A stretch of 64,000 nt of DNA from an uncultured Fibrobacterota bacterium (lineage in GTDB: Bacteria > Fibrobacterota > CAYVZU01). Under the pieces are notes generated by a model. The model searched no databases. It worked only from the letters and a program-made list of their open reading frames with translations, and was not told where the DNA came from. The stretch is taken from assembly GCA_964455935.1 (NCBI GenBank), contig CAYVZU010000001.1, positions 55,142 through 119,141 of the forward strand, read 5' to 3'. Positions 28,006 through 57,698 of the stretch are shown here, one piece after another; position 1 is the first letter of the stretch; every line of letters begins with the position of its first letter. A program made the translations under genes and the position numbers.

Positions 28006-28407
28006 ATGCGTGGATTTGACAGTCGGGGATCCGTTCTAGTCGAATCGGCCCTCTGCTTCCCCATTCTCCTTCTTGTCGTCTTCACATGTATTCAATTGGG
28101 TCCACTATTCGTTCAGGACTTGGTGGGCGAGTATGCCCTTTACGAAATGGTTCGCCTCGGTTCCCGGGGCGAATACGGCAGCAGGAATAGCCACGACAAT
28201 CTTAACGCGGCCGAAGCCCGGGCCCGGGAAGTCTGCGGCTGGGTCCTTCCCAAACTTTCCAGCACCGAATCCCGAGCCGACCCGTTGGCAATGCATCTGG
28301 AGATGGAAATGCCCATTCAGATTCCATTTGCGCAAATTCTATTGGGGAAAAAGCGATCTGCCAGAGACGATAATCTATTGATTGAAAAAGAACTGAAGAT
28401 GCGGTAG
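28006..28407 (+). CDS. TadE-like pseudopilin
   Basis: N-terminal RGSVLVESALCFPILLLVVF is the TadE-like motif. Confidence 0.6.
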   Translation: MRGFDSRGSVLVESALCFPILLLVVFTCIQLGPLFVQDLVGEYALYEMVRLGSRGEYGSRNSHDNLNAAEARAREVCGWVLPKLSSTESRADPLAMHLEMEMPIQIPFAQILLGKKRSARDDNLLIEKELKMR

Positions 28408-28410
28408 GTC

Positions 28411-28818
28411 ATGGACCAGAACGGACAATCGTTGGTGGAAATGACAATGGTTTCTGGGCTGTTTCTGTTTGTGGTGTTTGTGACTGCGGCCATTCACGAT
28501 TTCCATCGGACACGCTATAAAACGATCGTTTGCGCCTACCGGGCCGCAACCATTGCCTCGGAGGACTGCAACGCGTCTGCCGGCTCCAACTACATTGGCG
28601 ATTTTCCACTGAAGACAATCGATCAACAGTCGGAAGTCGATGAGGATTCTAGGGGTTTTTACCGCGCTAATCTGTATACCACGGATCCCCTCTCGAAAGT
28701 CCTGCTTGGATTGGACCGCTGGATCTCTTCGGCGCGGAAGTATCCCAAAGTGAAGCGAACCTATACATTTTGGATGCTTGGCAACGACACCGGATATGAG
28801 CATGTGCTCTGGGAATAG
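28411..28818 (+). CDS. TadE-like pseudopilin
   Basis: N-terminal GQSLVEMTMVSGLFLFVVFV is the TadE-like motif. Confidence 0.6.
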   Translation: MDQNGQSLVEMTMVSGLFLFVVFVTAAIHDFHRTRYKTIVCAYRAATIASEDCNASAGSNYIGDFPLKTIDQQSEVDEDSRGFYRANLYTTDPLSKVLLGLDRWISSARKYPKVKRTYTFWMLGNDTGYEHVLWE

Positions 28819-29677
28819 GTCTTCGGAGAGCGGACAGATCCTGCTTGCCGCGGTGGCCTTGCTGCCGTTGTTATTGACTGTCGCGCTCTACGTCTACCAC
28901 CATGGCATTGTCGGGGCCAACCGGATGGACCTGGAAAACATTGCCGATGCGGCGGCCATGGTGGGTGCAATCGAGCAGGCCCGCCACTTCAACGCGGTGG
29001 CCGAGGTGAATCGGCGCATCATGAAGGCGATTGAAGAGGTCCCCAAAAGCTACAAATGGCCCCTGGGTTGCTGGCAATGTTCAAAATGGAACCTTCCCTT
29101 GCAGATCCAGAGGGATTGGCAGGAGCTTCAGGAAGAAATCGAGACTCTGGCGCGCCAACAGGACCAGGTGATCTCGCAGGCCTCCCAGGCCTGCTCCACC
29201 GCGGTGCTTGACTACATTGAATCCGTGAACAAACAGCGCGGATACGACTCCAATCCCGTCGTGATCGATTCCCTGTCGAGTTTCTACTTCTCCAATATCG
29301 GCTACAATCGCCTCGACACCTTCTACACGGTTGTGTATTGGTATACAAAAGCAAATGGGGCAAAATGCGACTGCTGCCGGCCCAAATATTGCGGCCCGGC
29401 AAGCCTTGAACTGCCCGGTGCCATGATCTATCATTTCGATAACGAGAACGAGCCGGTGGTACGGGTGAGCCTGCGCCACGAGATTACCGATGACATTGCC
29501 TTGCGCTTTTTTGGCATACGGAACCGGCAAATCAAGTTCCGCGACATCGTGGCCTGCGCAACCTCCCGGGCCAGGGTTTCAGGACAAGAGGGGACGTTTT
29601 TCAATTATGGATGGAATTACAAAGCCAATTCCTTTAAGGCGGCATTGATCAATGTTGCGCAAGAGAAGCAAAGCTGA
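28778..29677 (+). CDS. TadG/Tad_N-like pilus assembly protein
   Basis: N-terminal SGQILLAAVALLPLLLTVALYV, then a ~270-aa variable domain. Confidence 0.5.
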   Translation: MATTPDMSMCSGNRSSESGQILLAAVALLPLLLTVALYVYHHGIVGANRMDLENIADAAAMVGAIEQARHFNAVAEVNRRIMKAIEEVPKSYKWPLGCWQCSKWNLPLQIQRDWQELQEEIETLARQQDQVISQASQACSTAVLDYIESVNKQRGYDSNPVVIDSLSSFYFSNIGYNRLDTFYTVVYWYTKANGAKCDCCRPKYCGPASLELPGAMIYHFDNENEPVVRVSLRHEITDDIALRFFGIRNRQIKFRDIVACATSRARVSGQEGTFFNYGWNYKANSFKAALINVAQEKQS

Positions 29678-29888
29678 TCGCGGCGAACTGCTGGTCGAAT
29701 ACGTCCTGATCTCGGCCATTGTTGTGGCCGGCATCGCCGGCGCGATCAAACTGCTTCAGCGGCAATTCATATCGAATTCCCTGTATATGTCGGAGTGCGT
29801 GGCCAAAGGGAAAAAAGCGCGTGTGCAAGTCGTGGATACGGATCTGTATCTACGGGGCCACAAGGACATGTCGGACTTTTATCGCTGA
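29652..29888 (+). CDS. flp: Flp-family type IVb pilin
   Basis: Leader plus G|ELLVEYVLISAIVVAGIAG matches the Flp G/xxxxEY processing motif. Confidence 0.6.
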   Translation: MLRKRSKADRGELLVEYVLISAIVVAGIAGAIKLLQRQFISNSLYMSECVAKGKKARVQVVDTDLYLRGHKDMSDFYR

Positions 29889-29920
29889 GAATAGCAGGAC
29901 ACAACCAAGAAGGAGGTCCT

Positions 29921-30184
29921 ATGCGGACGAAAATGGGGCGATGTTTGCGGACTCTGCGCAACCAGAAGGGCGTTTCGGACCTGGTGACCATGGTATTAAT
30001 CATTTCGCTGGTGGCTATTGCATCGGTAGCCACGCTTACTCTTTTCTCAGATACAATCAAAGACGCATTCACGGGGATCATCAAGGTCATGACCGGTCAG
30101 AGTCACGACATGAAGGACCGGTCCTCGGAAATCAAAATGGGAAACCAGATGGATGATGTCTTCCATCAGGAATCAGGCAATTAA
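29921..30184 (+). CDS. Flp-like pilin paralog with non-canonical processing motif
   Basis: KG|VSDLVTMVLIISLVAIASVA is Flp-like but has TM in place of EY. Strong SD AAGGAGG upstream. Confidence 0.5.
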   Translation: MRTKMGRCLRTLRNQKGVSDLVTMVLIISLVAIASVATLTLFSDTIKDAFTGIIKVMTGQSHDMKDRSSEIKMGNQMDDVFHQESGN

Positions 30185-30312
30185 TAAATTCCCGGACAGC
30201 GGCCTTTCCATGAGTTCCTGCGGGTGGAAGGATGCCGCATCCATATTAGAAAAAAAGCGGAAAGTATAATGCCTTTACCTGAGCGCATCAACCGCGAAAG
30301 GCCCGGTGTTCC

Positions 30313-33300
30313 ATGGTAGCCAGGGGAATTCGGCCGTGGCTGGCCGGCGCGGCCATTTCGGCATGGGCCGTTTGCGCCGCCGCCTACGATGTGGCGTCGT
30401 CATGCTGGAATCCCATATGCAGCGGATCAAGCTGCCTGCTGGATGGAATTACGGTCAACGACATCGAGGTTCTTACCGATAGGATTCTTTTCGTGGCAGG
30501 CGGCGATCAGTTGTCCACGACCGATGGAGGAATTTACCACACCGGCGACGGCGGAGTGTCCTGGAACCGGGTCATCCTGGGAAGCGAAGAGGCCCGCGTC
30601 AACTGCATCCGGCGAATTAATGGGAGTTGGTATGCGGGCGTGGATGCGGCGCCGGCCAAGAATTTTTCCGGGCTCTGGAAAAGCAACGACGGATTGACCT
30701 GGACCGAGTATATGCAAGGCGCGTTTTTGAACACGGAAGTGTACGATGTTGCCGCCGGTCCAGACGGTATTTATGTCGGTTTGGGATTGGCGGGCAACGC
30801 GCTTTTCCGGATTGCAGGCGATTCCGCCAAGGCCGTAGTGGGCCTGCCTTCTCAGCCGGTCTATGCGCTGTGCCGGGTGAGCGGGACCCTGTATGCGGGA
30901 ATCGGCAACGCCGTCTGGTCGATTGGGGCCGCTCCCGCCAAGGTGAGCCAGGATATGGCGGGCAACGTCCGCATGATCGCCGCCGACCCGGCGGCCACCG
31001 GCGCCTTCTATTTCGGAGTCATCGGGCCCGACCGGGCTGCAAGCCTGGCGGGGTTGTTCCGTTACAGCCCTTCGCAGGCGGGCCAGGGATCGATCCGCCG
31101 GATCGGGGCAAACGGTATCACCTCGCAGCAGGTCTGGGGGATTGGGTTCAACGGGCAGGACAAGTCGGAAGTGTACGTGGCCACCTTCCCGGACGCAATT
31201 ACCGGGTCCGACGGCGGCTTCTTCTATTCGAGGGACAGCGGCGCTACATGGGCCTCGAACAACTACGGATTGCGCAATTACTGCGCGGTTCGGGACATCG
31301 GAGTCGCCGACTCGACCATCTATATCGGCCTTGGATTTCAGGGCGGGCTGTATCGCCTTGTTCCCGGCCGCGCGAGCCCCTTTGTGACCAAAAGCTGGGA
31401 AACGCTGATCCGGGGCACGGCCGGGACCGACAAACTCCTCCAAAACCTCGCCCTGCGCGATTTGGGCGGAAGCACCACGCTGAAGATCCGCAAGAACATG
31501 GAAACGGGCGAGGTGAATCCGGTTTCGATCAAGGGCAAGGTGCAGGGCGGCATGGATTACCGGCTCTCGGTTTCCGCCGGAACCTCGCTCAAGCGCAGCT
31601 TGCCGCTGGAGGCGGCGGCCGAAGCCAATGCATCTGCCAGTGCGACATTTTACGCCGTGCCGTTCCTCAACGGGGAACTGAAAGTGGACATGGCGCAGCT
31701 CGCGGCCAAAGCCGAAGCGCCCCTGCAAATGACGGGTCTGGCAATGCTCGAAATGATCGCCAGCTATTCCAACAATTCATTTCTGATTTACGCGTCCAGC
31801 AAGCTGGAAACCTGGATTGCGGGGCCCAATTCCAATGTCTGGCAATCGCTGGGCTCGGTCATGCTGGGCCAGGGTTGCGAGGCGGGCATTGAGGCCGGCG
31901 CATCAGCCGCGGCCCAGGTCAGGATGCCGGATTTCAAGGATATCTCCGACGCGCTGGGCACCGTGGGGCTCGGCCGCATTGATGTGGCCAGCGCCAAGGC
32001 CTCCGGCGACGTCAGCTTTCGGTATTGGATCGAACGGTGCCGCCAGATTGTGCCGGCCTCCACCGCCGGGTGCACGACAAACTACCATTTCGAGCAGTCG
32101 TTCCAGTTCAGCGGGGTCCAGACCGCCCTCAACATTCCTCTGCGTCTCCCCATGAACCTGTCCTTCGACCGGCTTAACAAAACGCTCACAGCGCGAAATT
32201 ACCACCGGATGGCGGATGTAAAATGCGTGGGCACCGGAACCGGAGCGCAACAGGTCATCTCCGCCTCCCTTGAATTCGACGAGGCCCCCTATTGGACCTA
32301 CAATTATCAGGCCGCCACAGGGGACTCCAGAGGAAAAACCGAGTCCGGAATTTCCCGCACCCAATACGAAATCATGGGCCCCTCATCGAAGGATTTGATG
32401 GCAGCCCTCACGGCCGATTCCCGGATTTTTGCGATGATGGTCCCTCTGGGCCCATTTTTCGACAATTCGCCGGAGCGTGCCGTGGTTACCGGAAATTTCG
32501 GCAGCGAGAAGTCGGCGGTCGAGGCTTTTGCGCGGTCCATGGACAGCCTGCTTACGGCCTTCCCGACCTGCACGCTGCGCACGCGCGTCTGGGTGGAGAA
32601 CCGGGGCGAGGAAAGCAAGAATTTTTCCACGGACGACCTGGGAATTCCCATGCTCCGGGTCGCAGGCAAGGTGGGCTTGCGCACGGTGGTTTCACACGAC
32701 AAATATGTGATCAAACGCTACTACGACACGGGCCTGGGAAAAATGGCCGAGTACGGGCAGGCCTTTTCGGATCCTGGGACCAACAGCCTCGATTTTGTCA
32801 GCATGGTTCGTTCCACACTGGGCGAAACATGGGCGGGCTTCATGCAGAAACTGCAGGATTTGGGAGGAACCATCACCGGAATTCTGCGCGCGACCGGTAC
32901 CCCCAAAGTAGCCCGGGCTGCCGCGGCTCTGGATACTTCGTTCGTCCTGGTGACGGGGCCGGACACCAATGGAACGCTCCGGTTCTCGCTCAGCAGCGCG
33001 CCCGACTCGCTACATTTTGCCTACTTCTACGACAGCACCTTCATTCGGAGCCAATCTGTCGGTTTCGGCGGCATCTTCGAAATCCTTGCGGCCGCTGATT
33101 CGCTGCCGGCTACAGGAACGATCCGGATGCGTTACTCCCGCCCCGACGCGGCCGGCCTGGACGAAACGAAGATCGCGTTTTACCGGGAACTCCGGATTGC
33201 GGGGACGGACCAGTGGCGCTTCTGGGGCGGCCGGTGCGACACGTCCGCAAATCGGTGTTCCCTGACCGTTTCTTCGCTTTACAGTTTTACCCTGGGCTAT

Positions 33301-33927
33301 GACTCCGCCCCGCCGATCCTTCAGGGCTACAGGGAAGGAACCGCGCCCGCCGGGGACACGGTGAATCGCCGGATCGACCTTTGCCTTTATGACGCAATGA
33401 GCGGAATCGAACCATCCTCCATTTCGGTAACCCTCGACGGCGCGCCGCTGAGCGCGACATTTCGCGCCTTGCGCGATTCGGTTCTTCCCCTCGACAGCAG
33501 TGCAACATACGGGCACGACTCTGTATTCGTGACCTGCTCGCGCCAGACCGCGGAAGGGAAAAAGATCGTGCTTACGGTCTTGGACCGCAGCGGCAACCGC
33601 CTTGTAGACTCGATTTCCTTGCCCAGCACAGGCTCACTCACGTTGAGCGACATTGCCTGCTATCCGAATCCTTCCAAGGCGGATGTTTTCTTCTCCTTCC
33701 GGGCATCGGCGACCTGCAAGGTCAGGCTGTATATCCTCACATTGAGCGGGGAACGGGTGCGGGATTTTGATCTCAATGCAGCCTGGGGTGCCAACGAAAT
33801 CCATTGGGATGGGCGAAACGGCGCGGGTCGAAAGGTAAGCCCGGGCGTCTACTACTACAGGTTGAAAGCGTCCAGCGAGCAGGGCGGCTCCTTCGAGGCC
33901 CTGAAAAGATTGGCGATTACGCGATGA
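30313..33927 (+). CDS. 1204-aa secreted BNR/Asp-box-repeat surface protein with T9SS-type (Por_Secre_tail / FlgD-Ig-like) C-terminal sorting domain
   Basis: Signal peptide. Asp-box repeats STTDGGIYHTGDGGVSW, SNDGLTW and SRDSGATW. C-terminus YPNPSKADVFFSF...VRLYILTLSGERV...WDGRNGAGRKVSPGVYYYRLKA fits the T9SS CTD consensus. Confidence 0.7.
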   Translation: MVARGIRPWLAGAAISAWAVCAAAYDVASSCWNPICSGSSCLLDGITVNDIEVLTDRILFVAGGDQLSTTDGGIYHTGDGGVSWNRVILGSEEARVNCIRRINGSWYAGVDAAPAKNFSGLWKSNDGLTWTEYMQGAFLNTEVYDVAAGPDGIYVGLGLAGNALFRIAGDSAKAVVGLPSQPVYALCRVSGTLYAGIGNAVWSIGAAPAKVSQDMAGNVRMIAADPAATGAFYFGVIGPDRAASLAGLFRYSPSQAGQGSIRRIGANGITSQQVWGIGFNGQDKSEVYVATFPDAITGSDGGFFYSRDSGATWASNNYGLRNYCAVRDIGVADSTIYIGLGFQGGLYRLVPGRASPFVTKSWETLIRGTAGTDKLLQNLALRDLGGSTTLKIRKNMETGEVNPVSIKGKVQGGMDYRLSVSAGTSLKRSLPLEAAAEANASASATFYAVPFLNGELKVDMAQLAAKAEAPLQMTGLAMLEMIASYSNNSFLIYASSKLETWIAGPNSNVWQSLGSVMLGQGCEAGIEAGASAAAQVRMPDFKDISDALGTVGLGRIDVASAKASGDVSFRYWIERCRQIVPASTAGCTTNYHFEQSFQFSGVQTALNIPLRLPMNLSFDRLNKTLTARNYHRMADVKCVGTGTGAQQVISASLEFDEAPYWTYNYQAATGDSRGKTESGISRTQYEIMGPSSKDLMAALTADSRIFAMMVPLGPFFDNSPERAVVTGNFGSEKSAVEAFARSMDSLLTAFPTCTLRTRVWVENRGEESKNFSTDDLGIPMLRVAGKVGLRTVVSHDKYVIKRYYDTGLGKMAEYGQAFSDPGTNSLDFVSMVRSTLGETWAGFMQKLQDLGGTITGILRATGTPKVARAAAALDTSFVLVTGPDTNGTLRFSLSSAPDSLHFAYFYDSTFIRSQSVGFGGIFEILAAADSLPATGTIRMRYSRPDAAGLDETKIAFYRELRIAGTDQWRFWGGRCDTSANRCSLTVSSLYSFTLGYDSAPPILQGYREGTAPAGDTVNRRIDLCLYDAMSGIEPSSISVTLDGAPLSATFRALRDSVLPLDSSATYGHDSVFVTCSRQTAEGKKIVLTVLDRSGNRLVDSISLPSTGSLTLSDIACYPNPSKADVFFSFRASATCKVRLYILTLSGERVRDFDLNAAWGANEIHWDGRNGAGRKVSPGVYYYRLKASSEQGGSFEALKRLAITR

Positions 33928-35111
33928 CAAAAACAGCATGGATGATCCTCTTTGCCGCGGGGCTTGGGCTCGCCCTGGATTCGCCCACGGACTACACGGG
34001 CGCAACCGCCTGCAATTTCCTGAAAATACCGCCCACCGCAGCGGGGGCCGGCCTGGCCGGCGCCGTCGTGGCGGAAAAGGGCAGCCTGGCAAATTTGTAT
34101 TCCAATCCGGCCGCATTATCCACCATCGATGTCCACACCTTCACGGCCTCACATGTTTGGTACCACGATTCCGTCTCTCTGGAATATGCCGCCGTGGCCC
34201 TGCCCGTCCCCCACCGCGGCACGCTGGCCGTTTCGGGCGGAGGCCTTTTCATGAAACCCATGGCGCGGACGGTTCAAAATCCGGCGGGCGGATACCTTCA
34301 GGACGGAGAATTCACCGCCCACAGCGGATTTGGCGCCCTCAGCTATGCGTATGCAATGAACCGCAATTCGCACCTGGGCGTTACCACGAAATTCCTGATC
34401 GAATCCATCGACGAGAACTCGGCCTATACCTTTGCCTGGGATTTCGGATACGAGGTCCTGGCCGGGGATTTTAGCGCCGGCCTCAGCCTTAGCCACCTGG
34501 GCCTGGCTATGAAGTACGGCGACGAGAATTTCGCGCTGCCGGTCAGCCTGCAGGCGGGCGGCGCGCTTTCCCTTTTGGGTAACAAGCTCCGCAACTACGC
34601 ATCTGTGGAAATTCAGAGCGACAACATCCCTGTTGTTCGCCTGGGTGTTGCCTACAGGATGCATTCAGCCTTGCGGGTGCGGGCTGGCTACCGGTTCGGG
34701 CAGAACGAGAGCGCGTGGGACGGGATTTCGGCCGGATTGGGTCTGGTCTGGAACAACGCAGCCCTGGACTATTCGCTTGCCCCCGCCGCCCTGCTTGGAG
34801 TGAGTCACCGCATATCGCTGTCCCTGCGTTTCGGGGCCAAAACGGACAATTTTTTTGACGCGTCCAAGGCGGCGGATTTCGGCCGCGCAGAATTAAAACC
34901 GATTGTCTCCGCCCCGGAGCCAAAGGACGATGCCCAGGCAACCGAGGCCTACGAACTGGGCGTGCGCTATGAACAAGACCTCAACGACATTCCTTCGGCG
35001 ATCGCAAAATGGAAACAGGCCCAGGCGCTTTCGACCTCGGTCCAGACCGAAACCTACAAAAAGGCAGCCCGGAAGCTGCAAAAATATCAGACCAGCGGCA
35101 AATCGCAATAG
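33924..35111 (+). CDS. PorV/UPF0164-like outer-membrane beta-barrel
   Basis: Signal peptide. N-terminal FLKIPPTAAGAGLAGAVVA...NPAAL resembles the PorV/LptO family motif. ~395 aa barrel. ATGA-coupled to the upstream CTD protein. Confidence 0.5.
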   Translation: MTKTAWMILFAAGLGLALDSPTDYTGATACNFLKIPPTAAGAGLAGAVVAEKGSLANLYSNPAALSTIDVHTFTASHVWYHDSVSLEYAAVALPVPHRGTLAVSGGGLFMKPMARTVQNPAGGYLQDGEFTAHSGFGALSYAYAMNRNSHLGVTTKFLIESIDENSAYTFAWDFGYEVLAGDFSAGLSLSHLGLAMKYGDENFALPVSLQAGGALSLLGNKLRNYASVEIQSDNIPVVRLGVAYRMHSALRVRAGYRFGQNESAWDGISAGLGLVWNNAALDYSLAPAALLGVSHRISLSLRFGAKTDNFFDASKAADFGRAELKPIVSAPEPKDDAQATEAYELGVRYEQDLNDIPSAIAKWKQAQALSTSVQTETYKKAARKLQKYQTSGKSQ

Positions 35112-35138
35112 GCTCCGGGGCCATCACAGGGGGGGATT

Positions 35139-35966
35139 ATGGCCGGAAATTCCATGCTGACCGAAGCCGCGGGCGTCTGGTCCGGCCTTCGAGAGAAGGT
35201 GGAACGCCTTGGCGACCAGAAATCGCTGCTCTTGGCCGCGGCCGTCGGGATCGGGGGCATTCTGCTGGTCCAATTCTATTTCATCGCCCGTGAGCGGGAA
35301 ATCGGAGGCTTCTCCAAAGTTGTCGTAGCCTCGCGGGACCTGAAGGCCGGCACCCGGCTTTCGCGCGATATGCTGACCGTGGGGTCCTTCCCCGAACGAT
35401 ACCTGGAGTCCAAGAACATCCGGCCCAATTCACTCCCGCTCCTGCTTGGCCAGAAAACCATTGTCCCCATCCGCACCGGCCGGCCGTTTCTGTGGGACTA
35501 TGTTCTCACCCAGGAATCCACAAACTTTTCCGACAAGTTGGCTGAGGGCGAGCGCGCCTACACCATCGCGGTCGACAAGACCAGCGGTGTGGGTGGGTTC
35601 ATCCAGCCCAACGACCGAGTCGACATTGTAGGTACATTCCAAATCCCGGGTGACGGCGAGGTCCTGAATGAAGTCAATCTCGTGCTGATGCAGAGCGTGA
35701 CGGTCCTGGCCGTGGGCGAGAAGACCAACAGCTTCGGCGTGAATTCGCACTACGGCAGCCTGACTTTGAAACTGGCCTCGGTCAAAGAGGCCCAGATCCT
35801 TTCCTTCGCCATGCGCAAGGGCAAAATCGAGTTTCTGCTTCGCAACAGCCGCGACGTTGCCATTGAAGACACGACGCAGCAGGTCAAGCTTAACTCCATT
35901 CTAACGGATGTCATGTATGCGCGCAAAATCCGCGGGATCCGGTCGCTGATCCGGTACGATAAATAG
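35139..35966 (+). CDS. cpaB: Flp pilus assembly protein CpaB/RcpC
   Basis: N-terminal TM helix, SAF-like VVVASRDLKAGTRL, and RcpC C-terminal domain. Confidence 0.75.
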   Translation: MAGNSMLTEAAGVWSGLREKVERLGDQKSLLLAAAVGIGGILLVQFYFIAREREIGGFSKVVVASRDLKAGTRLSRDMLTVGSFPERYLESKNIRPNSLPLLLGQKTIVPIRTGRPFLWDYVLTQESTNFSDKLAEGERAYTIAVDKTSGVGGFIQPNDRVDIVGTFQIPGDGEVLNEVNLVLMQSVTVLAVGEKTNSFGVNSHYGSLTLKLASVKEAQILSFAMRKGKIEFLLRNSRDVAIEDTTQQVKLNSILTDVMYARKIRGIRSLIRYDK

Positions 35967-35977
35967 AGGGAGCCATT

Positions 35978-37201
35978 GTGAAACGAATTTGCCTCATCCC
36001 GGAAATTGCGCTGCTTCTGTTTGTGTCGACCTGGGCAGCTGCCTACAGCTCGTACGATGTTATTGTGGGCGGCCGCATCACGATTTCCGAAAGCGACGTC
36101 GCGGAGGTGAACGTATCGGACCAGAATATAGTCCGGGTGAATATGGCCCAGAATGGACTGCTGGTCACCGGGGTCGCCGAAGGGACCGGCGCAATTAGCA
36201 TCACCCGTTCCAACGGCACCATCCGAACCATCCGGGTGAACGTATATTCCGAGAAGGCGCCCAAAGAGGTACAGGCCGAGGTCACATCGCTGCTGAAGGG
36301 CCGGGTTGATGAAATCAAGACGGACATTTTGGGCGGCGATGTCGTTCTCATGGGTACGGTGAATTCCTGGCGTGGCAAGGTGCTCCTGGACCGGATCAAG
36401 GAAATGTACCCGCAGATACAGGACCTGATCGACTACAAGGTTCCCAGGCCTTCGGTCCAGATCGACGTGCGCGTATACGAGATCGACGTGGATGGCGCCA
36501 GCAAAATCGGCATCGACTGGCAGGCTCTGACTGAGCACACGATCTCCTTCTTGGAGGACATGACCCGCCAATCAGACATCAATCAGGTCATGAAAGCGGG
36601 CCCCCTGGTGCGCCAGAACCCGTTTGACGCCACGATTCACACCATGATCAGCGACGGGGTGGCCCGGGAACTGGCCAAGCCCAAGCTGGTCACATCCAAC
36701 GGCGGCCAGGCCCGTTTCCGTGTTGGCGGAAAGGTACCCTACCGGATCCTCGACAAGGAAGGGAACGCTTCGGTCCAATTTCAGGATTACGGCATCGCCA
36801 TGGAGATCGAGCCCAGAATCGAGGCAATGGGGGGCCGCTACATCGATCTCAAGATGGGCCTGGAAATCAGCCATCTCGACTATACGGTGATGATCAGCGA
36901 CAATCCCGGACTCATCGTGCGCAGCAACGAAACGGATATCACGCTCCGCCATGGCGCCACCATGGCCATTGCCGGGCTTTTATTCACCCGCCGTGAGGAA
37001 CACCATGGGCGGCTGCCCATCCTGGGCCGGCTCCCCTGGCTGGGAAACTGGCTGTTCGGCTATACAAGCACAAAGGAGACAAGAGTGGAGACGCTGGTGC
37101 TTGTGACTCCGTATATCCTCATTGAAGGCAGCCAAATCGGGCTCGAAAGCCCCGGCGAATTCAAAGGCCAGCTTGAAGATGAATTCCGAACCCGTAAATG
37201 A
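35978..37201 (+). CDS. cpaC: Flp pilus secretin CpaC/RcpA
   Basis: Signal peptide, BON-like N domains, and secretin core with LVTSNGGQARF and ETLVLVTPYIL. Confidence 0.8.
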   Translation: MKRICLIPEIALLLFVSTWAAAYSSYDVIVGGRITISESDVAEVNVSDQNIVRVNMAQNGLLVTGVAEGTGAISITRSNGTIRTIRVNVYSEKAPKEVQAEVTSLLKGRVDEIKTDILGGDVVLMGTVNSWRGKVLLDRIKEMYPQIQDLIDYKVPRPSVQIDVRVYEIDVDGASKIGIDWQALTEHTISFLEDMTRQSDINQVMKAGPLVRQNPFDATIHTMISDGVARELAKPKLVTSNGGQARFRVGGKVPYRILDKEGNASVQFQDYGIAMEIEPRIEAMGGRYIDLKMGLEISHLDYTVMISDNPGLIVRSNETDITLRHGATMAIAGLLFTRREEHHGRLPILGRLPWLGNWLFGYTSTKETRVETLVLVTPYILIEGSQIGLESPGEFKGQLEDEFRTRK

Positions 37202-38909
37202 CTCCGGCCCGGGAGCCGTGCTCCGGGAACAGCACCTGCACATCTCCGTGCAGACCGCGCACGGAGAGACCCTGCAGCAGGCGGAGTTTCCCATTCCCGG
37301 CGAACGCGTTCGCATTGGCTCGGGGGGAGACAGCGATCTATTGGTGGAGGGTCTCGAGCCTTCTTGGGGTGTTCTTCATACGCAGCGCTGTCCCTGCCGC
37401 CTTGCGTGCTGCTCCGCCGGCGGCAGGCCCGGAGGCCGCATGTTCGAGATCACCGATTGCAGTTTTGTGGAAGCCGGCGGGGTTTATCTGGTTTTCGAAT
37501 TCCAGACGCGCGAAACACCCATGCTGGAATTTCGCCCCGGAGAGATGCTGCAGGCGGTTCTACGCCGGTACAGTCCGAAGCTTGCAGCCATAAAGGGCGT
37601 GGACCAATACGAGCAACTTGGGCCCGCCGCGCAGATTCAGCTGATCAAAATCCTGCTCAACACCGCCCTCCTGGACTCCCTGAATCTCCGCAAGATCAGC
37701 ATCGATGAGATGGGCACGGAGAAGCTCAACGAACTGGTCCAGCGCAAGATCGAGGCCCTTCTCCGCGATTTCCGGCCCGTCGTGAACGGCCGCATCGGGC
37801 AGGATGAGCTTAGAAAGGAGCTGCTTCACGATGTGCTGGGGTACGGGCCTATCACCGACTTTCTCCAAGACCCGGGCATCGACGAGGTCATGGTCAATCG
37901 CTACAACCAAATCTTCATCGAGCGCAACGGCCGCCTTGTCCTTACCCCGAACAGCTTTCTATCCGACGAACACGTGATCTTCGTGATTCAGCGCATGGTG
38001 CACAAGGTCGGCCGGACCCTCAATGAGAGCCGCCCCATTGTAGATGCGCGGCTCGCGGACGGCTCGCGCGTCAATGCAATCATCCCTCCGCTTTCCCTCA
38101 GCGGTCCCACGCTGACCATTCGGAAATTCAGCCGGCGCTTTCGCTTGGACGACCTGGTCGCCCGGGGTGCGCTGCCCAAAGCAATTGGCCGGTTTCTATC
38201 TCTGGCGGTCGGCTCGCGCCAGAACATGATCATTGCCGGGGGGACCGGATCCGGAAAGACTACCCTCCTCAATGTGGTGTCTTCCTTCATCCCTTGCAAC
38301 GAACGGATCGTCACCATTGAGGATTCGGCCGAGTTGAAGCTCGATCAGCCCCACGTGATCACACTGGAAACGCGCAATGCCAACATCGAAGGCCGGGGCC
38401 AGGTCGCCATTCGCGACCTGGTGCGGAATGCGTTGCGCATGCGGCCCGACCGGATCATTGTCGGCGAATGCCGGGGGGGCGAGGCGCTTGATATGCTGCA
38501 GGCCATGAACACCGGGCACGATGGCTCGCTGACGACCATTCATGCCAATTCCCCGTACGACACCATTTCGCGCTTGGAAACAATCGCCATGATGTCCGAC
38601 GTCGAACTTCCGGCCGCCACCATCCGCCGCCAGATCTGCTCGGCCATCAACCTGATCGTGCAAACTGAACGCTTTGCCGACGGCTCGCGCAAGCTGGTTT
38701 CCATCGCAGAAATCGCCGGAATGGAAGGCGATGCCCCGGTTCTGAAGGAGATTTTCTTTTTCAAACCGCAGGGCTATGATGCCGACCAGCGGATCCGGGG
38801 GACTTTCCAAGCCACGGGCTACGACCCATGCTTCATCCGCCAGCTTCGCGAAATCGGCCTGGAAACGGATGCCTCGCTGTTCCGCCAAGGGGAACTGAAT
38901 GAGGAATAA
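37179..38909 (+). CDS. cpaF: CpaF/TadA secretion ATPase with N-terminal FHA domain
   Basis: FHA-like N-terminus. Walker [10 protein letters not shown], Asp box, Walker [10 protein letters not shown], His box. Confidence 0.8.
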
Positions 38910-39843
38910 AACAATAGCCGTTTTGGTGGCCGGCTCCGCCCTGGCGTTCGTTTTTCTGCTCGCGCGAATCCCATCGTTGACTTTGCCGGGGGCGCTTGTC
39001 CTCTTCTGCGGGTCGTTGTGCGTTTTTCTTTTTTGCTTCGCGGCGGCCGAATGGGGGCTTCATCTTCTGCGCATCGGCTCGCAACGCTACAGCCGCAAAT
39101 TCCTGGCCGATCACGCGCAGGCCGTGGAGCAGGTATTCGGTCAGATTACAGCCCTGCAGCTTCTTTACTTGCGCGTAATCGGCATGACCTTCATTCCACT
39201 TATGGTTTATCTTTTCTCGCACCGGTTCGTGTTGGGACTGCTTTGCGCGATTCCCTGCTATTTTCTCCCTGGCGCTGTGATGCGGCTTCTTTGGCGCCGC
39301 CGGCGTGCGCGGTTCGCTCGGCAATTCGTGGAGGCCCTGACCATGATGTCCTCCGCCCTTAAGGCTGGTATGGCGTTGCCGCGGGCCGTGGAGGAGGTGG
39401 TGGACGAGATGCCTCCCCCGATCTCGCAGGAGTTCGGCTTTGTGCTAAGCGAGATGCACGTGGGCCGCAGGCTGGACGAGGCGCTTTCGGCCATGGCCCG
39501 GCGCCTTCAGCTGAAGGAACTGGATTTGACGGTGACCGCGATCAATGTCGCCTTACGCATGGGAGGCAATCTCAACCAGATCTTTGAAAGCATAACGCAC
39601 ACCATCCGAAACCGGGACGCCGTGCTGGAAAAAGTGAAGACCTACACATCCTCCAGCAAACTTTCCGGATATTTTATCGGCTGCATCCCGGTGTTCTTTC
39701 TTCTGGTACTTAATCTTCTGCGTCCGGATTTCGTCTCGATCCTGTTTCATTCCCCCCAGGGGAATTTCGTGCTTGGCGTGGCGCTGATACTTGAGGCGAT
39801 GGGATTTGTAATGCTCATTAAACTGGCGAAGGTGAGGATTTAG
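38899..39843 (+). CDS. tadB: Flp pilus assembly inner-membrane protein TadB (T2SS-F family)
   Basis: GspF-like domain with 3-4 TM helices. Overlaps the cpaF stop. Confidence 0.7.
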   Translation: MRNKTIAVLVAGSALAFVFLLARIPSLTLPGALVLFCGSLCVFLFCFAAAEWGLHLLRIGSQRYSRKFLADHAQAVEQVFGQITALQLLYLRVIGMTFIPLMVYLFSHRFVLGLLCAIPCYFLPGAVMRLLWRRRRARFARQFVEALTMMSSALKAGMALPRAVEEVVDEMPPPISQEFGFVLSEMHVGRRLDEALSAMARRLQLKELDLTVTAINVALRMGGNLNQIFESITHTIRNRDAVLEKVKTYTSSSKLSGYFIGCIPVFFLLVLNLLRPDFVSILFHSPQGNFVLGVALILEAMGFVMLIKLAKVRI

Positions 39844-40698
39844 ATGGGAATGGCGATTCATTGCGTTTCCCTTCTTGCAGTGGGAATCTCATCTTTCCTC
39901 ATCGCGCGCAGCCTGCTTGCCTGGTGGAGTGGTGTCTCCAACAATCGCAATGCCAGCCGCGAGGCCTTGCTCTTTTTGGCCCGGCTTCTGGTTTGGTGGA
40001 AAGAAGAGGACTACCTCGACATGCAAAGCAAAATGGAAATGGCCGGGGACGCGGAGCAGATCAGCGCCAGGGAGTTCGCGGGCCTCAAGGTCGCCTTTGG
40101 CGCCGGCGCAGCGCTGCTTTTCGTGCTGCTGGTCTCGCTGGCGCAGGTTCCATCCAGTGGGGCGCATCGCCTGCTGTTGACATGCGGCATTGCCTGCCTG
40201 GGATATTGGGCCCCCGATTTATGGATTGCTCGGAAGGTCAAGGAACGCCGCCAGCTGATTCTTCTGGAGCTTCCCGATTTCATAGACCTTCTCACCCTTC
40301 TGGCCGAAGCCGGATTGGATTTCGGCACAAGCATCATGACCATTCTGGAAAACAGCAAGAAGACACCCCTGATCGAAGAATTATCGCTGTTCTATGCCGA
40401 AACGAATGTCGGGAAAAGCCGGATTCAGGCTTTGCGCGATTTTGGCGCCCGGGTGGGTCTTGGCGAACTCAACCTTTTTCTGGGTTCGTTGCTGCAATCG
40501 GAAAAACTGGGTGTAGACATGGCGGCCTATCTGCGGAGTCAGTCCAACGATTTCCGCGAGAAACGAATCCGGCGGGCGGAGCGGGCCGCCCTGCAGGCGC
40601 CCATTAAAATGACGGTTCCGCTTGTATTTTTCATTTTTCCGGCCCTGATTCTGATCATGCTGGGCCCGGTGGTCATCAGCGCGATTCAATCGTTTTAG
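39844..40698 (+). CDS. tadC: Flp pilus assembly inner-membrane protein TadC (T2SS-F family)
   Basis: GspF-like domain with TM helices. Starts immediately after the tadB stop. Confidence 0.7.
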   Translation: MGMAIHCVSLLAVGISSFLIARSLLAWWSGVSNNRNASREALLFLARLLVWWKEEDYLDMQSKMEMAGDAEQISAREFAGLKVAFGAGAALLFVLLVSLAQVPSSGAHRLLLTCGIACLGYWAPDLWIARKVKERRQLILLELPDFIDLLTLLAEAGLDFGTSIMTILENSKKTPLIEELSLFYAETNVGKSRIQALRDFGARVGLGELNLFLGSLLQSEKLGVDMAAYLRSQSNDFREKRIRRAERAALQAPIKMTVPLVFFIFPALILIMLGPVVISAIQSF

Positions 40699-40710
40699 GA
40701 TGGAATTCGA

Positions 40711-41358
40711 ATGAACACGGGCACGCGCATCGTCATCAAGGCCGGCAAGACACCGGAGTGGATTCCGCATCCACGGGATCCGCAGCGCAAGGTGTTCCGG
40801 GCCCGCGAAGTGCGGCGCTCTTCCCGAAAGCGGCGGCTTTTTCTTGCCGCAATTCCTGCTGCCTTCGTTTTCAGTATCGCCTTCATGGGGTTACTCCGGC
40901 CTGAGCCGGAAGAAGGAGCGTCCTTTCACGCCGTCACCGGGCCCAAGCTGCCGCGGGCCAGCCGCCGCGGACCGCCTCCGGACTCCGTTCTTGTGGAAGC
41001 GGGCAAGCGCGCCAAGGCCGGGGACAAGTATTACGCGGAACGGCATATCGACCCAACGCGTCGGCTGAACGCAATGTCCTCCTACGAGCAGGTCCTGCAG
41101 ATGCTTGCCATCTACGGCATGCGGCCGCCGCTCTACGGCAAAACGCTTCGACAATACCATCAAGTGGATTCGGAAAATGATTCCATCGTTAAAGCCCTGT
41201 ATGCGAAGTCGCGAGTGGAGATGGAAAAGGAAAACTATGCCCTGGCGTTCCATTATCTTTCGAGGATTCTGAGGATTTGGCCTGCCCACAAGCCACAATA
41301 CGTGGCCATTAAAAACCAGCGCGAAACCGTAGGTGCCTTGATTCGTGAAGAGGACTAG
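40711..41358 (+). CDS. membrane-anchored hypothetical protein with helical-repeat C-terminus (possibly TadD-like)
   Basis: N-terminal TM helix. C-terminal YAKSRVEMEKENYALAFHYLSRILRIWP is TPR-like. Last gene of the tad operon. Confidence 0.4.
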   Translation: MNTGTRIVIKAGKTPEWIPHPRDPQRKVFRAREVRRSSRKRRLFLAAIPAAFVFSIAFMGLLRPEPEEGASFHAVTGPKLPRASRRGPPPDSVLVEAGKRAKAGDKYYAERHIDPTRRLNAMSSYEQVLQMLAIYGMRPPLYGKTLRQYHQVDSENDSIVKALYAKSRVEMEKENYALAFHYLSRILRIWPAHKPQYVAIKNQRETVGALIREED

Positions 41359-41849: not shown

Positions 41850-44800
41850 TTACGCGGGATTGGCAGTCTTCCGGCCTTTCCGTCCCAGGTAGGCCGTTAC
41901 CATCGCGGGAATCACAAACAGGGTCATCAACGTCGAGACCGCGACACCACCGATGGCCGTGATCGCAAACGGCGCCTGGATGCTCGCGGACTGAAGGGCC
42001 GCGGGGATCGACGAAGTTACAATCGCCAGGTTCATCATCAGGATCGCGTGGAACTTCGTTTTGCATGCATCCATCATGGCGTCATGAGAGCTAAGGCCGT
42101 CCTTCATCCGCATCATTGAATAATCAATCACCAGAATAGCGTTGTTGACCACCACGCCAATGAGCATGATCATTGACATGAGTGAAATCATGGAAATCGA
42201 CTTGCCTGTGATAAGCAAAGCCGAAATAACGCCGATGAATCCCAGGGGAATGGTAATCATAATGAACAGGGGGAGAACTAGTGATTCGAGCGTGCCCGCC
42301 AGAACCATGAAGGTGAGCAGAATCGCCAGCAGCGTCGCCTTGCCCAACGCGCCGAAGGACTCGGCCATCATCTCCTGCTGGCCTCCAAAATAGATCCGGT
42401 AGCCCGATGGCACCTGGATCCGCTTCGTCAGTTTCTGCAGCTCGGCCGCCTTGGTTCCCGAAGCGCCCTTGGTTACGTTGGCGGTCACCGTGACCAGGCG
42501 CTGCCGGTTCTTGCGGTCGATGTTGGCCGCGCCGCCGCGATAAACCACCTTGGCCAGGGCTTTGACCGGAACAATCCCCCGCATGGTCGGGATGGAAATA
42601 TTTTCGATCGCGTCCAAAGAATTCCGGTCGCTTTCGCCGTATTGGACGCGCATCGTAATCTCGTCGTTGGTTTCGCGGTAGACCGCGGCTTCACTTCCTG
42701 TGAGCGCGTTGCGCACAAAGAAGCCGAGCATGGCCACGTTCATTCCGTATTCGTCCATGCGCATGCGGTCGGGCACGAACTGAATTTCCGGTTTGGCCTC
42801 TTTCCATGAGCGCTGGATGTCGGCCACGCCGGGAATTGTGCGGGCCAGCGCCATGACCGAATCCGTGAGCCGCAGGATTTTATCCATATCGTCACCGGTC
42901 ACCTCAACCTGAATATCGGCCTGGTTTCCCCCGCCGCCCATGGTGGACATCTCCTTTGCCGTAAATCGCGCGTCGGGAATATCGGCCAGCATGGGACGAA
43001 TGTCCCCAATCACTTCCTTCGTCGATCGCTTGCGCTGCTTGGCATCCTTCAGGCGCAATGTCACGGCGCCGAAATTGACGCCGCTCGAGGTTCCGCTGCC
43101 GCCCAGGCTTGAATAAACATCCACCAGTTCGGGGATTTTTGAAACCCGCGTCTCAACGGTCTGAAGCACACGATCGGTCGCCGACAGGGATGTGCCGGAG
43201 GGCATTTCCACTGAGATATCAACAAGGCCGGCATCGGTGGACGGGAAGAATTCGGATCCCACAAACCGGGCCGCGAAGAAACTGGTAAACAGAAGCAGGA
43301 CCGTCGAAACGATAACCCGCACTTTGTGAGCGAGCGCCGTTTGAAGCAAGTAAACATAGCGGCGTTCGAGCCAGGACAGAAACACTTCGAACCAGGCGAA
43401 CTTGAATTGCAGGCCCGTTCGGCCCAGCAACTTGGAGGCCATCAGAGGAGCCAGCGTGAAGGAAAGGGCCAGCGAAATAATTGTTGCGGCGGTTATTGTG
43501 AGTCCCAATGCTTTGAAGATCTGGCCGGTGATTCCCTGCATGGTGGCGATGGGCACGAACACAGCCACATTGGTGAGGGCCGAAGCGATCACCGCCACGG
43601 CGATCTCCGTTGTCCCTTTAAGCGATGCCTCGTTGATCGCATTCCCCATCCGCCTGTGGCGGACGATGTTCTCAAGGACAAGGATCGCATTGGTAACCAG
43701 TGTCCCCACGGAGATGGCCAGCGACATGAGCGTGATCACGTTGATCGTGAAACCGAGCATCTGCATGAACATGAAGGTTACGATCAGCGAGGCCGGAATC
43801 GTGATGGCGGCAATCAGCGTGAGTCGAACGTCGTGCAGAAAAAGAAGTAGCAAAATGGAGGTGAGCAGAATTCCAATCGCGACATTCGAATACATGTCAT
43901 TGACCGAGGTTCGAATGAAATCCGATCGGTCGCGCACAATGCTTAGCTTTGACCCGACCGGAAGCTTGGCCTCAATCTCCCGCAGGGCTTTGGCGCAACG
44001 GTCCGCCACTTCGACCGTGTTGGCATCGGGCCGCTTCTGGATCGAGATTCCCACTGAGTTGCGGCCGTTGAAGCGGGCGCCCTGTCGAACCTCTTTGTAA
44101 GCATCCTCCACCGCACCCAGAGCCGAAAGCGGAACGCTCATGGACGGCCCTCCGGGCCGGGAGACCGGGATGCGGAGATCGGAAATCTGGTGGAGCGATT
44201 CGAACTGGCCCTTGATTCGCACTGTGTATTCTTTCCGGTCGCCGGTCACCTGGCCCCCGGGAATGTCAACGGTCTGCGCGCCGATCATGGAGGCGACCGC
44301 GGTCACCGAGAGTCCAAGCGCATCCAGCTTCTCTTTGCGCAGGTTAATTCGAATCTCTCGCTCGCGACCGCCCGTAATGGCAACGGCCGCGACGCCGGGA
44401 ATGCGCACCAGATCCTCTTTGATCTGCTTGTCCGCAATATGGCGAAGCTCCAGCGGAGGCATGCTGGCGGTCATGGCCACATCCAGAATCGGCTGGGAAT
44501 TCATGTCGAACTTGGATACCACCGGCTTTTGAAGGTCGCGGGGCAGCTTAAAGAGAATGGCGTCGATTTTATCCTTCACATCGATGGAGGCAATGTCGGG
44601 ATTGACGCCCAGGTTGAATTCGACGAAAAGAAAGCCAAGCCCTTCGGCGCAAAAGGCGGTGATGTTTTTGATTCCACTGACCGTGGTTAATTGCTCCTCG
44701 ATGGGCTTGACCACGGCGGTCTCAATTTCCTCGGGACCGGCACCAGGGTAGATGGCCTGCACCGAAACAAAGGGAAGCTCGATATTGGGCATCAGGTCGA

Positions 44801-44900
44801 TGGGCAGACCAAGAAACGCGACAAGGCCAAAGGTGACAAAGGCCAGAATCACCATGATGGCCAGGACGGGCTGATGAATACTGATTTGCGTAATTTTCAT
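41850..44900 (-). CDS. RND multidrug efflux permease (AcrB/HAE1 family)
   Basis: 1016 aa and 12 TM helices. AcrB N-terminus MKITQISIHQPVLAIMVILAFVTFGLVAF...NIELPFVSVQAIYPGAGPEEIE. Confidence 0.9.
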   Translation of the reverse strand: MKITQISIHQPVLAIMVILAFVTFGLVAFLGLPIDLMPNIELPFVSVQAIYPGAGPEEIETAVVKPIEEQLTTVSGIKNITAFCAEGLGFLFVEFNLGVNPDIASIDVKDKIDAILFKLPRDLQKPVVSKFDMNSQPILDVAMTASMPPLELRHIADKQIKEDLVRIPGVAAVAITGGREREIRINLRKEKLDALGLSVTAVASMIGAQTVDIPGGQVTGDRKEYTVRIKGQFESLHQISDLRIPVSRPGGPSMSVPLSALGAVEDAYKEVRQGARFNGRNSVGISIQKRPDANTVEVADRCAKALREIEAKLPVGSKLSIVRDRSDFIRTSVNDMYSNVAIGILLTSILLLLFLHDVRLTLIAAITIPASLIVTFMFMQMLGFTINVITLMSLAISVGTLVTNAILVLENIVRHRRMGNAINEASLKGTTEIAVAVIASALTNVAVFVPIATMQGITGQIFKALGLTITAATIISLALSFTLAPLMASKLLGRTGLQFKFAWFEVFLSWLERRYVYLLQTALAHKVRVIVSTVLLLFTSFFAARFVGSEFFPSTDAGLVDISVEMPSGTSLSATDRVLQTVETRVSKIPELVDVYSSLGGSGTSSGVNFGAVTLRLKDAKQRKRSTKEVIGDIRPMLADIPDARFTAKEMSTMGGGGNQADIQVEVTGDDMDKILRLTDSVMALARTIPGVADIQRSWKEAKPEIQFVPDRMRMDEYGMNVAMLGFFVRNALTGSEAAVYRETNDEITMRVQYGESDRNSLDAIENISIPTMRGIVPVKALAKVVYRGGAANIDRKNRQRLVTVTANVTKGASGTKAAELQKLTKRIQVPSGYRIYFGGQQEMMAESFGALGKATLLAILLTFMVLAGTLESLVLPLFIMITIPLGFIGVISALLITGKSISMISLMSMIMLIGVVVNNAILVIDYSMMRMKDGLSSHDAMMDACKTKFHAILMMNLAIVTSSIPAALQSASIQAPFAITAIGGVAVSTLMTLFVIPAMVTAYLGRKGRKTANPA

Positions 44901-44922
44901 GATGTGCTCGAAGCGCCCCGGC

Positions 44923-45981: not shown

Positions 45982-46114
45982 AGTCTCTCCTTCAACTCAC
46001 AAGAGTAATTCGTTTTCTCTCCCCGGAGCCTGTCCGCCCTGGCGGAATGGGAGAGAACCCAGGTGAGGGTGTTGGTCACCCGGCTTTTCCACTTTTCCAT
46101 GCTTCGAATATTTT

Positions 46115-47644: not shown

Positions 47645-48285
47645 TTGGTCCCTTTCACGCCCAGGCCGGCGAAGAGGAATTTCATAATGCGCTGGAGGTC
47701 TTCTTCCCGGTTCCCCATTTTTCGATTGCGTTTCCACTCCATAACGGTGCCCCGAATGAGAGCGCCGATATAGCGCGCCACCCACGAATCTTCCACCGGA
47801 GACGCAAACTCATGGTTTTTGCGGCCTTCATCCAGCACGCGGCAGAACACACGGTTCACTTTCTCGGTCCATTTTTGCAAATCCGGGATGGACTGGCCAT
47901 CGGGTTTGCGCAGGTTTTGATGCAACAGACAGACCGTCTGAAAATCAGAAACGGCCAGAAGAAAGGCAAAATGCTCGCCCAGAACATCAAATATGGTTCG
48001 GATTATGCGCTCCAACCGGACCAGGGCGCTTCCGTCTGTGTTGGCGGATCGTTCCATTTGAACCAGGGTGCGCTCGTGTTCGCGAACGGCCAGGTTTACG
48101 AAGATGGTTTCTTTGTCTGGGTAGTAGTTGTAGAGCGAAGCTTTGGAAAACCCGGCGGCCTCGCCAATGTCCTCAAGCCGCGCCTGGTGAAAACCCTTAT
48201 CGGCAAACACTCTGCGCGCAGCATCCAAAATCAGCCCGCGCTTGGCATCCCTAACGGCCTGGTCTTTTGTTTCCCGTGGTTCCAT
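47641..48285 (-). CDS. TetR/AcrR-family repressor
   Basis: HTH ILDAARRVFADKGFHQARLEDIGEAAGFSKASLYNYY. First gene of the efflux operon. Confidence 0.8.
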   Translation of the reverse strand: MEPRETKDQAVRDAKRGLILDAARRVFADKGFHQARLEDIGEAAGFSKASLYNYYPDKETIFVNLAVREHERTLVQMERSANTDGSALVRLERIIRTIFDVLGEHFAFLLAVSDFQTVCLLHQNLRKPDGQSIPDLQKWTEKVNRVFCRVLDEGRKNHEFASPVEDSWVARYIGALIRGTVMEWKRNRKMGNREEDLQRIMKFLFAGLGVKGTK

Positions 48286-57694: not shown

Positions 57695-57698
57695 TCCC

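Follow-up and report, generated by a model that had tools for sequence, protein, structure and literature searches.

Gene content of the locus

We analyzed a 64,000-nucleotide (nt) stretch of DNA from an uncultured Fibrobacterota bacterium of groundwater, referred to here as the window, in which a Tad/Flp pilus locus occupies positions 28006–41358 of the + strand. Between its pilins and its assembly proteins, the locus is predicted to encode a secreted protein of 1204 amino acids (aa) and an outer-membrane β-barrel, a two-gene cassette that is the main subject of this study. An earlier reading of the same letters, hereafter the original prediction, had regarded the whole as a possible hybrid of Tad machinery and a type IX secretion system (T9SS). 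Thirteen closely spaced + strand open reading frames (ORFs) were confirmed in the order and at the coordinates proposed there, and the public annotation of the same contig contains proteins identical to their products. Based on the annotated products, the starts of the tadG-like gene and cpaF were refined to 28802 and 37179, respectively. The genes are as follows.

28006..28407, +: TadE-like pseudopilin 1, 133 aa, N-terminus G/SVLVES...P, exact product in the NCBI annotation
28411..28818, +: putative pseudopilin 2, 135 aa, hydrophobic helix after G/QSLVEM, called in public annotation
28802..29677, +: TadG-like protein, 291 aa when started at ATG 28802 as in the annotated product
29652..29888, +: Flp-like prepilin 1 (flp1), 78 aa, ...DRG/ELLVEYVLISAIVVAG..., called in four public sources
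29921..30184, +: Flp-like prepilin 2 (flp2), atypical, 87 aa, ...QKG/VSDLVTMVLI..., without Glu5
30313..33927, +: 1204-aa predicted secreted protein with a propeller-like region, an Ig-like domain and a C-terminal domain (CTD)
33924..35111, +: PorV/PorQ-family outer-membrane β-barrel, 395 aa, NF033709
35139..35966, +: CpaB/RcpC, TIGR03177 with RcpC and SAF domains
35978..37201, +: CpaC/RcpA-type secretin, PF00263
37179..38909, +: CpaF/TadA ATPase extended at the N-terminus by about 200 aa (degenerate FHA-like), T2SSE and TIGR03819
38899..39843, +: TadB, PF00482 (T2SSF)
39844..40698, +: TadC, PF00482 (T2SSF)
40711..41358, +: 215-aa membrane-anchored protein without a family match, last gene of the + strand run

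The pilus genes were compared with Pfam and NCBIfam hidden Markov models (HMMs). TadE-like pseudopilin 1 matched PF07811 (TadE) with 28.3 bits, above the gathering threshold (GA) of 22.9, and CpaB matched TIGR03177 with 130.4 bits (cut-off 71) along with the RcpC and SAF domains. The CpaC-type secretin gave 108 bits with PF00263 (Secretin) and 22.7 bits with PF13629 (GA 23), while CpaF gave 204 bits with PF00437 (T2SSE) and 321 bits with TIGR03819, under the equivalog cut-off of 373. TadB and TadC, each a single-domain platform protein, matched PF00482 (T2SSF) with 64.7 and 48.7 bits, respectively. The TadE, CpaB, Secretin, T2SSE and T2SSF matches bear out the Tad-type assignment of the original prediction, and judging from these family matches the region is a Tad-type (type IVc) pilus locus that appears ordinary in Tad terms.

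The finer labels of the original prediction fared unevenly. Among the pseudopilins and pilins, the first TadE-like protein exceeded its GA, whereas the second pseudopilin matched no Pfam or NCBIfam model, lenient thresholds included, and its putative assignment follows from the N-terminal motif G/QSLVEM and from its position. The TadG-like protein scored 21.2 bits with PF13400 (Tad), slightly under the GA of 22.3, and had weak tblastn matches to ORFs 5′ of cpaF in two Acidithiobacillus loci (L002 and L004). Flp1 carries the canonical Flp processing motif G/XXXXEY, read as G/ELLVEY, and had no Pfam match; flp2, in which Glu5 is missing, matched PF04964 (Flp_Fap) only at E 0.088 (13.1 bits), and its ATG is preceded at 7 nt by an AGGAGG ribosome-binding site. 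The CpaF N-terminus, which had been called FHA, aligns with the FHA-bearing CpaF N-termini of two other Tad loci (L021, E 5e-6; L037, E 3e-4), but it gave no Pfam FHA match even at E 5 and its phosphothreonine-binding Ser-Arg motif is replaced. For the 215-aa last gene, the label TPR-like was not supported, as no TPR or other Pfam match was found even at E 5. The absence of tadV and tadZ from the locus was confirmed: neither an A24 peptidase motif (TadV) nor a ParA/TadZ motif occurs in the six frames of the 64-kb window, and a Pfam scan of window ORFs of at least 200 aa returned no A24 peptidase or ParA/TadZ match. HMM scans also detected no TadD or RcpB homologue in the locus.

The 1204-aa protein and its PorV-family partner

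The 1204-aa protein is composed of an Asp-box β-propeller-like region (approximately residues 50–350), an orphan middle part (350–910), an Ig-like part (910–1060) and a CTD (1110–1204), which comprises the last 95 residues (nt 33640–33924). A candidate Sec signal peptide, MVARGIRPWLAGAAISAWAVCAAA/YDV, was judged by eye. The BNR label of the original prediction agrees with three Asp-box-like motifs in the propeller region and with its relation to Sortilin/BNR propellers, although that homology is weak (best E 8e-11). For residues 351–910 (nt 31363–33042; 560 residues), no related sequence turned up among 1.84 billion representative proteins, nor did Pfam give a match. A full-length homologue of the protein was found neither among 5.8 billion proteins by word-index search, which retrieved the protein alone, nor among the 1.84 billion by HMMER, which gave domain-level matches only, and a comparison with the PDB returned nothing significant. 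Because the GC content at third codon positions (GC3) stays at 0.71–0.76 over the full length of the gene, like that of its neighbors, and because an independent ENA assembly yields the same 1204-aa product, we judged the gene, its orphan middle included, to be coding.

The CTD matched FlgD_ig with 30.9 bits (GA 27), and its best local NCBIfam match was to the C-terminal domain of PorU (41.9 bits, E 2.6e-11), limited to residues 1084–1202 against PorU model positions 967–1094. When a profile was built solely from barrel-adjacent CTDs of other loci, the 1204-aa protein was matched with 65.6 bits (E 7e-20), and nothing else in the 64 kb was matched. The original prediction of a T9SS-type CTD was thus only partly upheld: between TIGR04183 and FlgD_ig the domain passed the threshold only as FlgD_ig, yet it matched both the PorU CTD and the barrel-adjacent CTD profile. 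Based on these profiles, the protein appears to end in a FlgD_ig/type-A-like, T9SS-like CTD. Three more specific identities were considered and rejected. PorU matched the protein only in its tail, PorZ did not match it at all, and the FlgD hook cap matched only the Ig-like part (NF005176, 22.5 bits against a cut-off of 230); flagellar genes were not found among the window ORFs scanned.

The barrel matched the PorV family model NF033709 with 112.5 bits (cut-off 90), while it remained under the equivalog cut-offs for PorV (NF033710, 23 against 250) and PorQ (NF033711, 68 against 220). By these scores it is a PorV/PorQ-family member and an orthologue of neither PorV nor PorQ. With a profile of the barrel and five relatives, the Flavobacterium PorV in the PDB (6h3i_F) was matched at E 2.9e-23 and TodX at 2e-3. 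The Toluene_X model gave the barrel a weak match of 17 bits. An AlphaFold (AF2) model from 46 sequences, with a predicted local distance difference test (pLDDT) score of 85 overall and about 95 in the barrel, gave PorV structures as the top Foldseek matches (8gl6_F, E 6.8e-15; 6h3i_F, 4.7e-13; TM 0.60–0.68), followed by FadL and TodX at E 1e-11 to 1e-9 (FadL 3e-11). While the 14-stranded barrel fold class is shared with the FadL/TodX channels, the profile E-value for PorV lies about 20 orders of magnitude below the one for TodX, and the genomic partner here is a CTD protein instead of a catabolic operon. A plain FadL identity was therefore rejected, as both the sequence profile and the Foldseek ranking favored PorV, and the original prediction of a PorV-like barrel stood on the NF033709, PDB profile and Foldseek results alike.

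In the model, the barrel spans residues 1–304, after which about 90 residues form a helical tail at the C-terminus (nt 34836–35108), modeled at lower confidence, for which a lenient Pfam scan found no TPR or other family match. Many PorV/PorQ-family barrels carry TPR, OmpA_C or FlgD_ig fusions, recalling PorP-PorE-type anchoring, and the unclassified tail of the window barrel sits where its relatives bear these fusions.

At 33924–33927, the tetranucleotide ATGA holds both the barrel start codon and the stop codon of the 1204-aa gene, so that the two genes form a translationally coupled pair, as had been proposed. The ATG of cpaB lies 27 nt past the barrel stop, after a G-rich Shine-Dalgarno-like run. 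The codon composition of the cassette is native (GC3 of 0.71–0.76 compared with 0.74–0.77 for cpaB–cpaF), and a repeat search around it found neither flanking repeats nor traces of mobile elements. From flp2 to the large gene there is a gap of 128 nt (30185–30312), which contains an A-rich run and a perfect TATAAT (30265–30270) with no recognizable −35 element, and a consensus scan of this gap found no + strand promoter. Considering that the 27-nt gap holds a ribosome-binding site and leaves no room for a promoter before cpaB, the cassette and the pilus assembly genes probably share a transcript. The native codon composition and the lack of flanking repeats agree with this.

Occurrence of the pair and of Tad loci in other genomes

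To see where such barrels occur, we inspected seven distinct genomic contexts of the barrel's relatives, counting two copies of one context (L087 and L088) once. A CTD protein lay just 5′ of a PorV-family barrel in all seven, and none of them contained Tad genes. In five contexts, the queried barrel was directly 3′ of a large CTD protein, often overlapping it; the partners were a Y_Y_Y protein on an Aerophobetes contig (L083), a 1244-aa fn3/TIG protein with a 4-nt overlap (L086), a 360-aa protein (L087 and its copy L088), a 1073-aa Kelch propeller (L090) and a 2172-aa protein (L091). In the two others (L085, 1479–4918; L089, 5414–8918), a BNR propeller CTD protein was followed by two tandem PorV-family barrels, of which the queried one was the second. 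These two contexts also share synteny, with PHP upstream and an M50 peptidase, TGT and YajC downstream.

For an unselected sample, metagenome contigs were scanned with a DNA pattern for the family motif WNPAGLA, which yielded 64 loci whose barrel reached 90 bits or more on the family HMM. Upstream sequence of 300 nt or longer made 57 of these testable. A CTD ORF ended −24 to +138 nt from the barrel start in 31 of the 57 testable barrels (54%), and 31 of the 45 CTD ORFs in those loci occupied that barrel-adjacent position. Among 16 complete upstream proteins scanned with NCBIfam, only two were true PorU (about 975 bits). The other upstream partners were diverse, and only their tails matched the C-terminal domains of PorU or PorZ, or TIGR04183. 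The porU-porV adjacency itself was present in the sample (L098 and L102). When the barrel-relative and motif-scan loci were screened together, cpaB, cpaC, tadB and tadC were found in none of 129, and two weak cpaF matches proved to be PilB/MshE-type ATPases beside TraF_2-family barrels, a different system. Members of the PorV family bear names from Aerophobetes, WOR-3, Poribacteria, Elusimicrobia and Latescibacterota. From these gene neighborhoods, the CTD protein and the PorV-family barrel appear to be a self-contained pair that recurs widely without Tad genes.

Other arrangements were seen as well. In L184 (361–3107, −) and L205 (351–3935, −), a TraF_2-family (PF13729) FadL/PorV-like barrel with WNPAGLA lies directly 5′ of a PilB/MshE-type ATPase (MshEN and T2SSE). 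In L212 (175–3606, +), a PorV-like barrel fused to TPR repeats (573 aa) is directly followed by a 547-aa FliF-C/FliG-like fusion, on a contig with a protein to which NCBI gives the name of an Elusimicrobia bin from Rifle.

The Tad part was compared with 80 Tad loci listed from a CpaF search of genome contigs, which come from many phyla and are all distant (45–58% identity in CpaF). Neither the barrel nor the large protein had a homologue in any of the 80. Tad order in Aggregatibacter is flp-tadV-rcpCAB-tadZABCDEFG. Compared with the Tad/Flp loci of Aggregatibacter and of Caulobacter (pilA-cpaA-F), the locus has the same CpaB/RcpC, CpaC/RcpA-type secretin, CpaF/TadA, TadB and TadC, as well as pseudopilins of the TadE- and TadG-like kinds and, in flp1, a small candidate prepilin bearing G/XXXXEY. 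It differs in that the pseudopilins come first, in that tadV, tadZ, tadD and rcpB were not found, in the degenerate FHA-like N-terminus of CpaF, and in the foreign-type cassette between flp and cpaB. Except for the cassette, these differences are common among the 80 diverse loci listed. According to a home-made iterative TadE/G profile, same-strand TadE/G-like ORFs were confined to the upstream side of cpaF in 27 of the listed loci and to the downstream side in 9, while another 5 had them on both sides. By the same crude motif test, 18 of the 45 listed loci with full flanks had no motif for tadV or for tadZ, so that lacking both does not argue against a Tad assignment, and both FHA-CpaF comparison loci lacked the TadZ motif. 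The inverted gene order and the missing tadV and tadZ pointed out by the original prediction are thus real, but they are not unusual; we rejected the order as a notable feature, and these common variations are no sign of a new apparatus. The cassette and Tad loci are statistically independent, and their union here is a one-off among the sampled loci.

The CTD protein and barrel were also compared with known T9SS components. PorZ is a β-propeller protein. As in the PorU-PorV and PorZ-PorQ pairs of Porphyromonas and Flavobacterium, a large predicted surface protein with a type-A-like CTD is combined here with a PorV/PorQ-family barrel, although the 1204-aa protein is neither PorU nor PorZ and no other T9SS component was found among the scanned window ORFs. 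On the cell surface, PorU remains attached to PorV and PorZ to PorQ, both with their CTDs retained (PMC10202324; PMC5562754). The arrangement also follows the logic of the SprB-SprF and Fjoh pairs, in which the gene of a type B CTD cargo is followed by that of its own PorV-like barrel (PorP/SprF); type B cargo is genetically linked to its cognate PorP/SprF shuttle, which is needed for secretion and anchorage in the cases studied (PMC12618676; PMC9143113). Here, in contrast, the CTD is FlgD_ig/type-A-like and the barrel belongs to the PorV/PorQ family instead of PorP/SprF. Since type A CTDs are described as all using a single general PorV (PMC12618676), a dedicated PorV-like partner for a type-A-like CTD would be a variation. 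In the open-access literature searched, we found no paper on type-A-like CTD/PorV-like gene pairs and none on T9SS in WOR-3, Aerophobetes, Latescibacteria or Zixibacteria.

Relation between the cassette and the pilus genes

Given the family memberships, the coupling of the two genes and a cassette that recurs elsewhere independently of Tad loci, we consider it moderately probable that the locus is a conventional Tad operon within which an independent cassette of a CTD protein and a PorV-like barrel is embedded, the two being linked by expression. The 1204-aa protein would be exported by Sec, after which its FlgD_ig/type-A-like CTD would be captured by the co-translated PorV/PorQ-family barrel. 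The barrel may act as a cognate shuttle, as a non-covalent outer-membrane anchor or as both, keeping the propeller protein on the surface; binding of the CTD to the barrel and this role are suggested by analogy with the PorU-PorV, PorZ-PorQ and type-B-CTD/PorP-SprF pairs. The outer membrane would be crossed via a SprA/Sov-type translocon encoded elsewhere and not via the Tad secretin. If the cassette and the pilus assembly genes are co-expressed, two surface-adhesion functions would appear together, and the placement of the cassette inside the Tad operon is most likely either regulatory or incidental.

Several observations weigh against this account of an embedded, co-expressed cassette. No T9SS translocon, motor or sortase component (SprA/Sov, PorK/L/M/N, PorU) was found among the scanned ORFs of the 64-kb window, and the CTD scored 20.1 bits with TIGR04183, under the cut-off of 23. 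A scan for promoters and terminators gave nothing above shuffled controls and so did not delimit the transcription units. The tight spacing to cpaB and the periplasmic helical tail of the barrel are compatible with a direct role in the Tad envelope complex. Furthermore, no close relative of this organism with which the position of the cassette could be compared was present among the listed CpaF matches, and a secretin search of metagenomes was empty.

The hybrid apparatus of the original prediction, in which the Tad secretin and pseudopilus would export or display the 1204-aa protein with the barrel as a dedicated sorting partner, draws on the packing of the genes on one strand with the cassette 27 nt 5′ of cpaB, on the lack of a T9SS core gene among the scanned ORFs of the window, and on the fact that the cassette fills the usual tadV slot. 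It was not borne out by the comparison with other genomes, where the pair recurs without Tad genes (7/7 contexts, 31/57 barrels), the cassette occurs in 0/80 listed Tad loci and cpaB, cpaC, tadB or tadC in 0/129 barrel-relative and motif-scan loci, and the same type of cassette has such unrelated neighbors as an M50 peptidase, ExbBD-TonB, resistance-nodulation-division (RND) efflux genes and glycosyltransferases. Because the cassette is common elsewhere without pilus genes, a hybrid machine is highly improbable. The same counts bear on a more limited involvement in the pilus, in which the barrel with its helical tail would replace RcpB/TadD as pilotin or anchor of the secretin and the propeller protein would be a PilY1-like pilus-associated adhesin. 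While the lack of a detected TadD or RcpB homologue in the locus, the tail of about 90 aa, the position of the barrel gene directly 5′ of cpaB and cpaC, the TPR or OmpA fusions of other family members, a FliF/FliG-like gene next to one of them, and the PilB/MshE ATPases beside the related TraF_2 barrels would suit such a role, the dominant and statistically strong partner of the barrel family is a CTD protein and not a pilus gene, none of the 80 listed Tad loci has such a barrel, and no TPR or other family was recognized in the tail. We regard this role as very unlikely.

Two further explanations leave the pilus aside. The cassette may simply have landed or drifted beside the Tad operon, driven by a promoter of its own in the 128 nt that follow flp2 and without a functional or regulatory tie to the pilus genes, as its uniqueness inside a Tad operon among all sampled loci and the lone TATAAT at 30265–30270 would allow. 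In this case, transcription of cpaB to tadC would still have to read through from the cassette, as the 27-nt gap leaves cpaB without room for a promoter, and the cassette has native codon composition with no flanking repeats or mobile-element traces, so that we consider pure juxtaposition unlikely. Alternatively, outside Bacteroidota, a barrel with only Sec and the β-barrel assembly machinery (BAM) might export and/or anchor the CTD protein with no SprA or PorKLMN. Cassettes of this kind occur widely and are mostly coupled in translation, the five lineages given above all have named family members, T9SS is described as a feature of Bacteroidota or of the FCB group (Fibrobacteres-Chlorobi-Bacteroidetes) in the open-access literature searched, where no paper connected it with those lineages, and only 2 of the 16 upstream partners were PorU. 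On the other hand, passage of large proteins is not known for a 14-stranded FadL-like barrel, and PorV is a shuttle and not a channel in the systems studied (PMC5562754). Such autonomous display is rather improbable, and we hold it to be similarly doubtful that a widespread two-component display system free of T9SS core genes exists in many candidate phyla and has been wired into the Tad operon here, co-deploying a giant orphan propeller adhesin with a pilus.

Returning to the embedded cassette, it appears to be a common variant of the known T9SS cargo/shuttle pairs, in which a type-A-like CTD has its own PorV/PorQ-family barrel. The cognate-shuttle principle, demonstrated so far with PorP/SprF and type B CTDs and also implied by PorU-PorV and PorZ-PorQ, would then extend to type-A-like CTDs and reach lineages far outside cultured Bacteroidota. 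If such pairs work without a full T9SS, they would represent a new minimal route of surface display in diderm bacteria, and if they need a T9SS, they would be convenient for spotting cargo-specific shuttles in genomes. Close packing of genes in an operon says little, by itself, for a composite machine, and the value of the locus lies in its cassette, the Tad part being ordinary for Tad biology.

The surroundings of the locus in the window were also inspected. The dnaA gene (10506–11864, +) lies about 16 kb 5′ of the locus, which places the region near a probable replication origin; the cumulative GC skew of the window is flat and uninformative. At 2900–6444 (−), a Ser/Thr kinase with an F5/8-type C-terminal domain adjoins a 695-aa FHA-ABC transporter fusion, and this pair, together with the degenerate FHA-like N-terminus of CpaF, hints at control of envelope systems by phospho-signaling. 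An RND efflux set (OEP, MFP and AcrB; 41850–47785, −) converges on the end of the Tad locus, and in L090 (11987–16948) PorV-like barrels are likewise followed by RND MFP and AcrB genes, possibly by coincidence. A complete Wadjet/JetABCD-type operon occupies 56252–62847 (+) and encodes DUF3375 (JetA), DUF4194/MksE (JetB), a 1121-aa SbcC-like ATPase (JetC) and a DUF3322 and JetD_C protein (JetD).

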